Shown piece after piece: positions 10,216 through 63,358 of a stretch of 64,000 nucleotides of DNA (position 1 is its first letter; the number at the start of each line of letters is the position of its first letter). This DNA comes from a virus (Duplodnaviria; Caudoviricetes), in IMG/VR virus record IMGVR_UViG_3300017917_003016, positions 137,733-201,732 of that record; one strand, written 5' to 3'. The notes beneath the pieces are model-generated. The model was not told the DNA's origin. It saw nothing but the letters and a program-made list of their open reading frames with translations, and did not search any database. Position numbers and translations under genes: made by a program.

Positions 10216-10806
10216 ATGCCTAATCTAGTACCAATGGTTCTTGAACGCACCAGTCAAGGTGAACGCAGTTATGATTTGTATTCAAGACTGCTCAAAGACC
10301 GCATTGTGATTCTTGACACTGACGTCAACGAACACTCAGCAAGTCTTATTGTTGCTCAATTGCTGTTCCTTGAAGCAGAAGATGCTGAAAAAGATATTTT
10401 GTTCTATATCAACAGTCCAGGGGGTATTATCACTGCTGGTATGAGCATTTATGATACCATGCAGTTTATTCGTCCTCAGGTCAGCACCATTGTAATGGGA
10501 CAGGCCTGCTCAATGGGCAGTTTTCTTGCACAAGCAGGGGCCCCAGGCAAACGTATGATGCTGCCCAATGCTCGACACATGATTCACCAACCTAGCGGTG
10601 GTGCACGTGGCATGGCTTCAGACATTGAAATTTCCTACAAGGAAATCATGCACTGGAAGCAACGTCTAACAGAACTTTATGTAGAGCACAATACCTCAGG
10701 TAAAACCTATGAAGATTTTGAGCGGGACATGGATCGTGACACTTTTATGAGTGCACAGGAATCTCTGGAGTATGGCCTCTGTGACGAAATTATCACTAAA
10801 CGATAA
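10216..10806 (+). CDS. clpP: ATP-dependent Clp protease proteolytic subunit
   Basis: [25 protein letters not shown] (Ser), MIHQP (His), DRDTFMSA (Asp). Confidence 0.96.
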
Positions 10807-14909: not shown

Positions 14910-15041
14910 ATGAAAGTCAAAAACCTAATTAAAAAACTTTATAGTTCTATAATCAGCGGTCGTAAAAATTTAGAAAAGAAAGTCTACGAAAAAATAACTC
15001 GTAAAAGTTTGAAGCACAAGCACACACAGGCTGTGAGATAA
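14910..15041 (+). CDS. 43-aa highly basic microprotein
   Basis: MKVKNLIKKLYSSIISGRKNLEKKVYEKITRKSLKHKHTQAVR. Confidence 0.55.
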   Translation: MKVKNLIKKLYSSIISGRKNLEKKVYEKITRKSLKHKHTQAVR

Positions 15042-15045
15042 AATT

Positions 15046-15132
15046 ATGAATTATAAAATTGGTGAATATTTACTGACTGCATTGACATACATTGCCATTG
15101 CTGTTATAATTATTGAACTATTTTTGAAGTAA
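15046..15132 (+). CDS. Possible 28-aa single-TM microprotein overlapping the tmRNA promoter
   Basis: MNYKIGEYLLTALTYIAIAVIIIELFLK; starts 4 nt after the previous stop. Confidence 0.35.
   Translation: MNYKIGEYLLTALTYIAIAVIIIELFLK
15082..15110 (+). promoter_or_regulatory. Sigma70 consensus promoter for the tmRNA precursor
   Basis: TTGACA(15082)-17 nt-TATAAT(15105); late-like GTAAATA also at 15129-15135. Confidence 0.8.
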
Positions 15133-15136
15133 ATAA

Positions 15137-15204
15137 GAGTATTGCTGTATGAAGTTGATGGAAAGGTGTTCTGGACGCGGGTTCGACTCCCGCCGACTCC
15201 ACCA
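15137..15204 (+). ncRNA. ssrA: Two-piece tmRNA, acceptor piece (5' end approximate)
   Basis: T-arm GCGGG-TTCGACT-CCCGC (15177-15193), acceptor 3' strand CGACTCC, discriminator A, encoded CCA (15202-15204). Confidence 0.9.
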
Positions 15205-15207
15205 AAA

Positions 15208-15429
15208 ATGCACTGTATGACTGAAGACCAAAGACGTTACGCCTATGAATTGTTTTACCTAGTAAAAGGCCATGTCAAGTATTTTGACGATGCTGACCTA
15301 GAGGCCATAGTCAAAGATTATACTCGGCGTCTGTGGTACAATGAAGAAGCACATTTGTACCGTGAAGGGTTTGAAGAAGCATATCGTGTGTTTTCGCTGG
15401 GGTCGTACAGGTTTCGACAGGGCAAATGA
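15208..15429 (+). CDS. 73-aa ORF in the tmRNA intervening segment, stop codon inside the coding piece
   Basis: ATG 3 nt after CCA (alternative ATG 15217); MHCMTEDQRRYAYELFYLVKGHVKYF...LWYNEEAHLYREGFEEAYRVF...; open across the whole 194-nt spacer. Confidence 0.6.
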   Translation: MHCMTEDQRRYAYELFYLVKGHVKYFDDADLEAIVKDYTRRLWYNEEAHLYREGFEEAYRVFSLGSYRFRQGK

Positions 15430-15486
15430 GTACGGATATGGACAGCACGGTAGGCGAAGACCGTAAATCTAGCAAAACTTATAGAT

Positions 15487-15576
15487 GCCAACACATCTAA
15501 ATTTGGTACTGCAAAAGTATCTATGGGCCGCGGCTTCCGCTTCGGTACTCGTAGTGCTGAGGCAGTAGCAGCCTAA
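15487..15576 (+). other. tmRNA tag reading frame (A)ANTSKFGTAKVSMGRGFRFGTRSAEAVAA
   Basis: Resume codon GCC after ATAGAT downstream of pk1; begins AN, ends AVAA-stop. Confidence 0.85.
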
Positions 15577-15622
15577 ACTCTGCAACCACGGGGTTGGTTA
15601 GCCTTGTTACCCAATTAACCAA

Positions 15623-15645
15623 AGCCCACTTCGGTGGGCTTTTTT
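15623..15645 (+). terminator. Intrinsic terminator
   Basis: AGCCCAC-TTCG-GTGGGCT followed by a T run. Confidence 0.9.
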
Positions 15646-15663
15646 ATCTTGATTATAGACAAA

Positions 15664-15670
15664 ATAAATA
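15664..15670 (+). promoter_or_regulatory. Late promoter-like ATAAATA
   Basis: After terminator, before the 15690 gene. Confidence 0.6.
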
Positions 15671-17313: not shown

Positions 17314-17373
17314 TTTCGTGCCTAGATCAGGGCGGAACGAAAATTTTATTTGCTTACTAAAAGGAGTAAAACA

Positions 17374-19307
<1,934 letters not shown>

Positions 19308-60174: not shown

Positions 60175-61026
60175 ATGGCTAATGCATATGAAACACTGGG
60201 TGTGCCTCAAGGGGCATCCGACGACGAGATCAAGAGGGCTTATCGTAAACTAGCAGCCAAACATCATCCAGACAAGGGCGGTGACACTGCTAAGTTTCAA
60301 GAGATACAACAGGCCTACGAAACTCTGAGCGACCCCCACAAACGTGCCCAACACGACAATCCCCATCCATTTCACGGATTTCATCAGGCTGGTCCAGGAA
60401 CTCACTTTGAGTTTCACTTTGGCGGTGGTGGTCCAGAAGATATTTTTCAACAGTTTTTTCAACACGGATTTGGCGGACCAAATCCATTTACACAACGGCA
60501 ACCCAGACGCAACAAGGATCTGCGTGTACAACTGACCATAGAACTAAGCAGTACACTGTCTCAACAACGTAAAACCATCAATGTACAGACCACTAAAGGT
60601 GATCGATACAATGTAGATGTTGACATACCACGTGGAATCAGTGATGGGACTACTATAAAGTATGGTGGTATGGGTGATAACATGTTTGACTCGTTGACTA
60701 GAGGCGACTTGTATGTTATCATTAGCGTTGTTAATGACACTGCTTATGAAATACACGGAATAAATTTGGTTTCAAATATTCAAATTGACTGTATTGATGC
60801 CATGTTGGGTGTTGAAAAAATTATCAAAGGTATTGACGGCCGTGAGTTCGCAGTTAAAATACCGCAAGGTTGTCAACATGGTAGTAAATTTGGTCTGCAG
60901 GCACAAGGCCTGTATCAAATGAATTCTAATCTGCGAGGTGATCTCATAGTATCAATCAACGTATCAATTCCCACACTAAGTGATGAACAATTAAACATAC
61001 TTAGAACACTGAAATCCACCAACTAA
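60175..61026 (+). CDS. dnaJ: Class II J-domain co-chaperone (DnaJ/CbpA-like, no Zn finger)
   Basis: [17 protein letters not shown]-rich linker, C-terminal GDLYV and GDLIV. Confidence 0.9.
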
Positions 61027-61048: not shown

Positions 61049-63358
61049 TTGTCTGAAATGCGTTCAAATCCTGAAATTGAAAAAATTATAACCAATGCCT
61101 GTTTACTTGCCAAAGAATACCGTCATGGTTACGTTACTCTTGAACACCTATTGATTTGTCTAATAGAATTTCCAAACTTCAATCGTCTGCTGGTTGACTT
61201 TGGTGTAGATGTTGAAAATCTAATTAGAGATCTTTACGATTATGTAGGCAAGCAAGATCATTTGGTAAATTCCTCAGAAGAAGAAATTACACCCCAGAGA
61301 ACACACAGTTTGGAGAGGGTATTTAATCGAGCATTTACACAGGTTTTATTCAGTGCTCGTGAAGAAATGTTGCCCATCGATCTGTTTCTTAGTATTAGCC
61401 AAGAACCCAATAGTCATGCAGCCTACTACCTCCTGAAGTGGGGCATTAATCGCAAGCAACTGGTTGAATTCTTTACCGAACGTAACATTGACAGATTGGG
61501 TAAGAGTGTGAAAAAAGATTCCCTGCGCAAGGACACTGCAGAAAAAATTCTTGATGAATATTGTACTAATCTTAATCGTCAAGTTCAAGAAGGTAAGATT
61601 GATCCTGTAATTGGCCGTGCTACAGAACTAGAAGAAATATCACAGGTATTGGCTCGCAGACACAAGAGCAATGTACTTATGATTGGCGACCCTGGAGTAG
61701 GTAAGACTGCTATTGCAGAAGGCCTGGCCTATAAGATTGAAAATGGAGAAGTGCCAGAATATCTCAAATCTTACACTGTTTACAATTTAGAAATTGGCAG
61801 TCTCCTGGCTGGCAGTAAGTATCGCGGAGAATTTGAAGAAAAACTCAAAGAAGTTCTGGCGGCACTGGGACAAAAGGGTGACTGCATACTGTTCATTGAT
61901 GAGGCTCATCAGATGCAGGGTGCAGGTGCTGGTGGATCTAGTCAAGTTGACTTTGCTAACATGCTCAAACCGGCACTGGCCAAGGGCACTATCAAAGTCA
62001 TTGCTTCAACTACCTTTGAAGAATATACACAAAGTTTTGAAAAAGACCGCGCACTAATGCGCAGATTCTACAAGTTGAATATCGATGAGCCAACTCCGGA
62101 TATTGCCAAAGATATTCTCTATGGCCTAAGAACTCATTTTGAAAAATTCCACGGCGGTGTTATCACTGACGATGCAATTGAATCAGCCGTTGACCTCAGT
62201 GTTAGATATCAAACAGACAAGCGTCTTCCTGACAAGGCTATCGACCTAATTGATATGAGTTGTGCCAAGGCCAAGATCAAAGAAACTGACTTTGTCATTG
62301 GCAAGGATGAAATTGTTGACACTATCAGTAAGGCAACAAAAATTCCTAGAGAAAACCTCATGTCAGAAAAAGCCACAGAGAATCTAATTACCCTTGAATC
62401 AACAATTAAGGAAAAACTCTACGGACAAGATAGTGCTGTGGATACTGTACTAGAAAAAATCTATGTGGCCAAAGCAGGTATGAAGGCTCATAATAAACCA
62501 GTGGGTAATTTTCTATTCCTTGGGCCCACCGGAACTGGTAAAACAGAACTGTGCAAACTTTTAAGCGAAGCACTGAATATGAAACTTTTGAGATTTGACA
62601 TGAGTGAATATCAAGAGAAGCATACTATGGCCAAACTTATCGGTGCACCACCAGGATATGTGGGCTACGAAGATAGCAATCTTGGCGGCGGATTATTGAT
62701 CAGTGAAATTGAACGCAATCCACACGCTATCATTCTTATGGATGAAATTGAAAAGGCACACCCAGATGTCAGCAATCTACTGTTACAGGTCATGGACGAA
62801 GGTTACATCACTGGTTCAAACGGCAAGCGAGCAGATGCACGTCATTGCATGCTGATTCTAACCAGTAATCTGGGCGCCAGTGATGCTGAACAAAACGCTA
62901 TTGGCTTTGGTCGCAGTCTGCAGAAAGAAGGAACCGACGACGAAGCGGCTAAGAAATTCTTCAAACCAGAGTTTCGCAATCGACTAGATGCTGTGGTAAA
63001 GTTTGGTAAACTTGATAAGATTTCGATGAAGAAGATTGTTGTTAAATTCTTAAATGAATTGAACACCTTGCTCGTTGATCGAAGCATTAAGATTAGACCA
63101 ACTGAATCTCTAGTAGAACATTTGGTTGATGTAGGATTTGATCCTGCTATGGGTGCGCGGCCACTTAACCGCAAGATCAATGAACTGATTAAAGTTCCTC
63201 TCAGTAAGAAAATTCTATTTGAAAGTATCGAAAACGGCAGCACAGTGTCTGCAGACTTTGCAAACAGTTTAGTAAAATTCACTGTGATTCCCCCAACCAC
63301 AGTTGATCTATTGGAAAACAAAACTGTTGACGAAAATGGATTTATTGTTTTAGAATAA
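61049..63358 (+). CDS. clpA: ClpA AAA+ unfoldase
   Basis: N-domain VTLEHLL; NBD1 GDPGVGKT, FIDEAH; PDKAIDL; no M-domain; NBD2 GPTGTGKT, DEIEKAHP; IGF loop (AIGFG). Confidence 0.93.
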   Translation: MSEMRSNPEIEKIITNACLLAKEYRHGYVTLEHLLICLIEFPNFNRLLVDFGVDVENLIRDLYDYVGKQDHLVNSSEEEITPQRTHSLERVFNRAFTQVLFSAREEMLPIDLFLSISQEPNSHAAYYLLKWGINRKQLVEFFTERNIDRLGKSVKKDSLRKDTAEKILDEYCTNLNRQVQEGKIDPVIGRATELEEISQVLARRHKSNVLMIGDPGVGKTAIAEGLAYKIENGEVPEYLKSYTVYNLEIGSLLAGSKYRGEFEEKLKEVLAALGQKGDCILFIDEAHQMQGAGAGGSSQVDFANMLKPALAKGTIKVIASTTFEEYTQSFEKDRALMRRFYKLNIDEPTPDIAKDILYGLRTHFEKFHGGVITDDAIESAVDLSVRYQTDKRLPDKAIDLIDMSCAKAKIKETDFVIGKDEIVDTISKATKIPRENLMSEKATENLITLESTIKEKLYGQDSAVDTVLEKIYVAKAGMKAHNKPVGNFLFLGPTGTGKTELCKLLSEALNMKLLRFDMSEYQEKHTMAKLIGAPPGYVGYEDSNLGGGLLISEIERNPHAIILMDEIEKAHPDVSNLLLQVMDEGYITGSNGKRADARHCMLILTSNLGASDAEQNAIGFGRSLQKEGTDDEAAKKFFKPEFRNRLDAVVKFGKLDKISMKKIVVKFLNELNTLLVDRSIKIRPTESLVEHLVDVGFDPAMGARPLNRKINELIKVPLSKKILFESIENGSTVSADFANSLVKFTVIPPTTVDLLENKTVDENGFIVLE

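Follow-up and report, generated by a model that had tools for sequence, protein, structure and literature searches.

It is noted that a phage-encoded two-piece tmRNA, the product of a circularly permuted gene, is per se already published and is not new. Of the 133 unique phage tmRNAs tallied by Buchholz et al. (2022, PMC9004378), 53 are two-piece forms, and the 2025 tmRNA database contains 79 phage sequences. Among the 118 IMG/VR loci that share the T-arm/acceptor motif, 41 are permuted. The gene considered here is located in the window, by which we mean the whole stretch of 64,000 nucleotides that was analysed, i.e., the final 64 kb of a 201,732-bp IMG/VR record with a completeness of 56% by CheckV.

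According to the accessible text of PMC9004378, Melnitz (an OM43 phage) and the pelagimyophages likewise carry a phage-encoded permuted ssrA in a large aquatic-type T4-like myophage, with the difference that the Melnitz tmRNA belongs to the alphaproteobacterial type and has a glutamine riboswitch while that of the window belongs to the beta type, contains a nested gene and encodes a tag of 29 aa; that text reports no gene in the Melnitz tmRNA spacer. The betaproteobacterial two-piece tmRNA (RF01850; Sharkady and Williams 2004, as cited in PMC11915505) has the same order of parts and the same P2, PK1, tRNA-like domain and terminal hairpin as the gene of the window. Its consensus spacer is of ~16-17 nt as compared to 194 nt in the window, and its tag region is of 72 nt as compared to 127 nt. 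The Stenotrophomonas phages (Marzo and Moby of Menderavirus, and DLP_6) give the sole DNA-level matches among 50,697 GenBank phage records. Their tmRNA genes are permuted and of the beta type like that of the window (95-104 bits with RF01850), whereas their spacers of 31-57 nt contain no gene, their tags are of 13-14 aa, and they are embedded in tRNA arrays and not preceded by a dedicated promoter. Of the 17 matching GenBank records, 12 have no annotation at the matching position. The genes are at L003:1473-1847 in Marzo and at L004:1473-1816 in DLP_6, and for Marzo ARAGORN additionally reports a 'standard' tmRNA, overlapping two tRNAs, which is spurious. In gammaproteobacterial hosts a one-piece tmRNA is expected.

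Genes inside tmRNA genes have also been described. In the intron-form tmRNA genes a group I intron is present in the T-loop, and in one permuted tmRNA the spacer contains a tRNA-Ala gene, which has been termed 'a unique feature' (PMC11915505). Both forms resemble the gene of the window in that another gene is carried by a part of the precursor which is cut out; there this part is a self-splicing intron or the passenger is a tRNA, whereas here the passenger is an ordinary conserved protein gene in a permuted spacer. In the searchable papers the sole passengers described for permuted-tmRNA spacers are tRNA-Ala and a repetitive element, and in the searchable literature no protein gene is described in the spacer of a phage tmRNA. 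What is unusual and specific to the present locus is its putative relocation history, the apparent loss of a stop codon and the expansion of the tag, as discussed below.

Judging from the sequence and its predicted structure, the locus is a genuine beta-type two-piece (circularly permuted) tmRNA gene on the virus record of a large, uncultured, myovirus-like phage. Its features, in positions of the window, are as follows.

15082-15110, plus strand: sigma-70 promoter, TTGACA, 17 nt, TG-TATAAT (extended -10), with 12/12 consensus positions
15143-15204, plus strand: core of the acceptor piece, with P2 strands (15143-15148 and 15167-15173), T-arm, acceptor 3' strand and ACCA
15205-15398, plus strand: spacer (intervening segment) of 194 nt, which maturation is expected to remove
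15205-15219, plus strand: 5' arm of the closing stem, AAAAUGCAC (15205-15213) and GUAUG (15215-15219), covering the start codon of the nested gene
15217-15429, plus strand: nested gene, here called gene64, of 70 codons from the conserved Met, with TGA at 15427-15429
15380-15394, plus strand: 3' arm of the closing stem, CAUAU (15380-15384) and GUGUGUUUU (15386-15394), which also provides codons A-Y-R-V-F of the nested gene
15399-15447, plus strand: start of the coding piece, with GGGGUCG (15399-15405), D-loop analogue GGUUUCGAC (15410-15418) and P2 strands (15418-15424 and 15442-15447)
15447-15470, plus strand: pseudoknot PK1, with one helix of 15447-15450 and 15461-15464 and another of AGA (15458-15460) and UCU (15468-15470)
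15487-15576, plus strand: tag reading frame, with resume codon GCC, 29 codons ending AVAA and stop TAA
15590-15622, plus strand: post-tag element, with hairpin UUGGUUA (15594-15600) and UAACCAA (15616-15622), and GGGG (15590-15593) facing CCUU (15602-15605)
15621-15648, plus strand: intrinsic terminator with a 9-bp stem (15621-15642), UUCG loop and U run; the coding piece probably ends here

An earlier note on this DNA had claimed a phage-encoded permuted tmRNA here and had named ARAGORN and the permuted-tmRNA models of Rfam as checks. Both bear it out: ARAGORN finds a single tmRNA in the window, at 15112-15667, and labels it 'Permuted', and RF04321 (tmRNA_permuted) gives 119.2 bits (E 1e-22, cut-off 47). 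Moreover, every element which that note listed is present in its place, and the gene is located on a virus record. RF01850 (beta_tmRNA) gives 86.2 bits (E 1.5e-24, cut-off 84), while the alpha subtype (41.3 bits, cut-off 50) and the cyano subtype (36, cut-off 70) are both sub-threshold, so that the beta subtype alone is above its cut-off. The three detectors agree on the tmRNA call, and the detection is far beyond chance. The margin of RF01850 is merely 2 bits because of two large insertions, and in the alignment to this model the middle P2 helix contains non-standard pairs. It had also been stated that gene callers miss permuted tmRNAs, which does not hold here, since ARAGORN, a standard caller, detects the gene of the window at once.

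The order of parts is the permuted one, with the 3' tRNA domain (15166-15204) followed by the 5' domain (15399-15425) and then by the tag (15487-15576). As had been claimed, the T-arm and the CCA end come first: the T-arm GCGGG-UUCGACU-CCCGC at 15177-15193, with a tRNA-like T-loop (UUCGACU), is followed by CGACUCC (15194-15200) and by the discriminator A and CCA (15201-15204), and the 5' end GGGGUCG is where it had been placed. GGGGUCG and CGACUCC rebuild an acceptor stem with 7/7 pairs, with G3:U present and ACCA encoded. This stem has five sequence variants in the family, each of which is 7/7 paired with G3:U. The two P2 helices that had been proposed are also present, with UGUUCUG (15167-15173) pairing with CAGGGCA (15418-15424) and UGCUGU (15143-15148) pairing with ACAGCA (15442-15447). 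An unconstrained minimum-free-energy fold of 15143-15450 recovers both P2 helices, the T-arm, the acceptor stem and the closing stem of the spacer. The mature 5' end of the acceptor piece lies somewhere from ~15117 to 15143. As the locus has its own promoter and its own terminator, the latter having been claimed and being found here at 15621-15642, followed by a U run, the tmRNA gene is a separate transcription unit.

Downstream of P2, both helices of the pk1 that had been named are present upstream of the resume codon, and the second of them covaries, with 3/3 pairs changing on both sides and being 100% paired in a small sample of 6 sequences. As a control the partners were slid, whereupon only 10-31% of the cells pair over the complete structure of 7 pairs, as compared to 93% for the structure as drawn. 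After the tag, one pseudoknot had been claimed. Here the hairpin stands, its arms showing compensatory changes in that they differ and stay complementary in 10 relatives, while the GGGG/CCUU helix is invariant, so that covariation is uninformative for it; GGGG (15590-15593) and CCUU (15602-15605) may pair to form the post-tag pseudoknot.

The length and position that had been given for the spacer, 194 nt at 15205-15398, agree with ours. Among 44 permuted tmRNA genes, i.e., that of the window, two of GenBank phages and a further 41 on viral contigs, the spacer lengths range from 4 to 200 nt, and that of the window is among the longest. The two ends of the spacer are complementary: AAAAUGCAC pairs with GUGUGUUUU and GUAUG pairs with CAUAU, after which CGCU stands ahead of GGGG. 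The spacer of the relatives is a hairpin with paired ends followed by UGAU ahead of GGGG, and the loci with the gene in the spacer (nested type) retain this layout. Note also that with U or C at 15209 and G or A at 15210 among the window and the nested-type loci L140 and L134, the pairing in the closing stem is kept throughout. The closing stem would hold the acceptor strands together across 194 nt, and in doing so it would bury the start codon of the nested gene.

The tmRNA had been said to be masked by a 95-aa ORF call. The ORF does exist (15142-15429, with a TTG start), but it is not a mere mask, as its core, 15217-15429, is a conserved gene, gene64. By starting at TTG15142 the 95-aa call is extended too far, across the acceptor piece, with the conserved start being the Met at 15217, and the last 11 codons of gene64 together with the TGA at 15427-15429 fall within the 5' tRNA-like domain of the tmRNA. 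For annotation it follows that where an ORF is called across a permuted tmRNA, the call may at once reflect a real gene and betray an RNA gene that was missed.

Gene64 has 18 homologues with 75-91% identity, mostly of 64-70 aa, and their alignment contains 28 invariant columns. By the Nei-Gojobori method, with synonymous sites saturated among the window, L133, L134 and L140, the dN/dS is 0.05 for the window versus L140 and 0.07-0.10 for L140 or L133 versus L134, all the pairs being of the nested type. Such low values within the nested type argue that gene64 is translated and selected inside the tmRNA gene, which would mean that a protein gene under selection can reside in the spacer of a permuted stable-RNA gene, a segment supposed to be disposable. 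Upstream of the start codon no Shine-Dalgarno sequence is seen, and the start codon itself takes part in the closing stem, which makes the mode of translation of gene64 hard to explain. The AlphaFold model of the protein (pLDDT 80.5) predicts a small four-helix fold. The protein has no match in Pfam, PHROG or PDB and no named match in AFDB, where one unnamed homologue is present, and among isolated phages no encoder was found.

In every readable locus gene64 is linked to a permuted tmRNA, with 14 of the loci having the gene upstream, 4 having it nested and 1 being decayed. In the upstream layout, which is that of 14 related loci, gene64 is located 8-110 nt ahead of a permuted tmRNA of the beta type with a spacer of just 7-78 nt. 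In the nested layout, gene64 is located within the spacer, and the 4 loci (the window, L133, L134 and L140) are from different samples. A conserved 68-aa gene (69% identity) precedes gene64 in the upstream layout and precedes the acceptor piece in the nested-type L134, and therefore gene64 and the acceptor piece have swapped their order. A further layout is present at L135:178-545, on a metagenome contig of 610 nt, where gene64 stands between two degenerate starts of the acceptor piece without a working tmRNA; in copy A the 3' half of the T-stem is gone, and copy B ends after GGACGC. The locus L135 is probably a decayed intermediate of a duplication, and it shows that the lineage can lose the tmRNA altogether.

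From these gene orders we infer that the ancestral position of gene64 was directly upstream of the tmRNA. The simplest route to which they point is a tandem duplication of the gene together with the acceptor piece, after which the downstream copy of the acceptor piece and the upstream copy of the gene would have been deleted, and the three layouts (upstream, between duplicated pieces and nested) thus trace a plausible route into the spacer. The nested-type proteins end with ...AYRVFS(L/M)GSYRFRQGK, which is encoded by the tmRNA's own 5' domain. It appears that the deletion took the last five or six codons of gene64 together with its stop codon, and that the gene now reads into the 5' domain of the tmRNA.

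In the four nested-type loci the acceptor piece is near-identical, with two P2 positions differing and both still paired, and the 5' domain is near-identical as well. One variant of the acceptor stem is exclusive to the nested type and the junctions of the nested-type loci are identical, and it is solely these shared junctions and this acceptor stem that argue for a single origin of the nested layout. The tree of gene64 (177 columns), in which 8 of the 10 forks have less than 80% support, is poorly resolved and too short to bear on the number of origins. It is also observed that at 15047-15133 the window contains an ORF of 28 codons for a hydrophobic peptide (MNYKIGEYLL...), which overlaps the tmRNA promoter, and that this ORF and that at 14910-15041 (43 codons) occupy the site of the conserved 68-aa gene of the relatives.

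The tag frame that had been named is confirmed; it is located at 15487-15576, has an Ala resume codon (GCC) and ends in AEAVAA-TAA. Among the nested-type relatives with a complete gene L140 is the nearest, and it has at the same offset a canonical 14-aa tag, ANDNVYAEDFALAA. The tag of the window is 45 nt longer than that of L140, in frame, giving 29 aa in which the AN start and the AEAVAA end are kept, while in the N-terminal part the ANDxVYAED of the relatives is replaced. The tag of Caulobacter also ends with AVAA. The commonest length of tags is 10 aa (PMC11915505).

As to where the insertion of 45 nt came from, nothing similar is found elsewhere in the 202-kb genome. A subfamily of long tags joining the window with the locus L071, whose 31-aa tag looks alike by eye, was considered and rejected, as BLASTP gives no alignment and 18.5% of shuffles in which the canonical tag ends were preserved score as high. 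Within the expansion (15502-15553), there are two occurrences of TT(T/C)GGTACT at a distance of 39 nt, which encode KFGT and RFGT. This repeat might be the trace of an internal duplication; the rest of the 39-nt units match at ~36%, which may be chance.

The tmRNA gene sits among the proteostasis genes of the phage, which are as follows.

10216-10806: ClpP (258 bits)
17350-19307: GroES and GroEL, with GroEL 69% identical to enterobacterial GroL
60175-61026: DnaJ
61049-63358: ClpA-like double-ring ATPase of 769 aa, with Clp_N and two AAA modules

The identity of GroEL points no further than to a proteobacterial host. A virion structural protein of 1286 aa has its best matches in T4-like cyanophages, with 41% identity. 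SmpB was not found in the 202-kb record, which is 56% complete by CheckV. When 185,579 prokaryote species, represented by one genome each, were scanned for exact 21-mers and 31-mers of the tmRNA, there were 0 matches, and the tmRNA was therefore not captured recently from a sequenced host. In itself, the tmRNA merely adds an example of the beta type, from a giant phage that has Clp proteins and chaperones of its own. The 27 tRNA genes of the record form an array upstream of the window, at G000:C1:125958-134759, which covers most amino acids and has three tRNA-Met-like (CAT) genes.

Based on the above, we consider it quite probable that the locus encodes a functional two-piece tmRNA which works with the SmpB of the host and whose tagged products are fed to Clp proteases, some of them phage-encoded, with the precursor doubling as the messenger of gene64. 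The proposed pathway is as follows. A single transcript would be made from the promoter at 15082-15110 to the terminator at ~15646, and in it the paired ends of the 194-nt spacer would bring the acceptor strands together. RNase P would then cut before G15399, and maturation of the 3' end would leave the acceptor piece ending at CCA15204, with the two pieces staying joined via the acceptor stem and the P2 helices. After charging by AlaRS via G3:U, the tmRNA would enter stalled ribosomes with the SmpB of the host, which is proposed because none is encoded in the 202 kb. Translation would resume at GCC15487 and append the 29-residue tag ending with AVAA, which should send the product to Clp proteases, for which the phage supplies its own ClpP and ClpA-like unfoldase. 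The spacer would double as messenger for the conserved gene of 64-70 codons, which is under strong purifying selection. Two questions can now be tested, namely whether the precursor is also a messenger and whether 5'-end processing, which would remove the stop codon, controls this messenger.

By contrast, it could be argued that the RNA is a retargeted tagger or a decoy, which would still enter ribosomes or bind SmpB, with the long tag being no degradation signal or the RNA mainly competing with the tmRNA of the host, so that the phage would alter the fate of stalled-ribosome products instead of merely increasing the capacity for rescue. The tag of 29 aa versus 14 aa in the nearest relative, with the ANDxVYAED part replaced, is what would be expected from such a role, as is the failure to find SmpB in the record, and there is a precedent in the tag-less tmRNA-like RNA of mycobacteriophage DS6A, which inhibits the endogenous tmRNA in E. 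coli (PMC11915505). The tag of the window, however, is in an intact frame and has at its C-terminus the A-V-A-A of known proteolysis tags, which the ClpP and ClpA-like ATPase of the phage could use, and we take a retargeted tagger or a decoy to be unlikely. Still smaller is the probability that we give to decay of the gene, with the insertion in the spacer and the expansion of the tag marking the early loss of an unneeded tmRNA. It is true that in the relative L135 both copies of the acceptor piece are degenerate and the remaining tmRNA is missing, and that the score with beta_tmRNA is barely over the cut-off; but RF04321 gives 119 bits versus a cut-off of 47 bits, the tRNA-like elements are intact and near-identical in the four nested-type loci despite the saturation of synonymous sites, the insertion in the tag is in frame, the promoter is of perfect consensus and the terminator is clean.

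The association of gene64 with a permuted tmRNA at all the readable loci and the strong purifying selection on it could also be accounted for if the locus were mainly the messenger of a small protein, with the tmRNA halves being chiefly tRNA-like processing signals that trim and stabilise it. This leaves the conserved tag frame, PK1, G3:U and the D-loop analogue unexplained, and in the relatives the gene is outside a tmRNA that is nonetheless complete, so that we regard it as very improbable. A functional two-piece tmRNA whose precursor also serves gene64 is thus the preferred reading.

Within the preferred reading, the arrangement of gene64 brings to mind arfA of E. coli, whose non-stop mRNA arises from RNase III cleavage and whose product is controlled by tmRNA tagging. 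In parallel with this, an RNase P cut at 15398/15399 would strip gene64 of its stop codon and make it a substrate of trans-translation; the likeness is a functional analogy only, with no similarity in sequence or fold. The cut at the 5' end would then turn the spacer into a near-leaderless non-stop mRNA, the product of which would be tagged and destroyed while trans-translation works and would build up when it does not, a proposal that we put forward very tentatively and to which we assign only a small chance. If it is true, an arfA-like feedback sensor would be present inside the tmRNA gene, linking a protein that always adjoins phage tmRNAs to the function of the tmRNA.

Finally, we note that ORFs are also present in the spacers of other permuted tmRNAs. 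At L071:937-1444 (minus strand) the spacer of 146 nt contains an ATG-started ORF of 57 aa, and at L056:6039-6540 the spacer of 200 nt contains an ATG-started ORF of 62 aa. Both begin within ~11 nt of the CCA, and that of L071 reads into the 5' domain. They have near-identical homologues only, for which reason selection is unmeasurable, and they are thus candidate genes. In addition, within L126:2805-3217 (minus strand) a spacer of 105 nt contains the T-arm-like GGTTCGATTCCGGC, which may belong to a tRNA gene inside the spacer or be a fragment of a tRNA.
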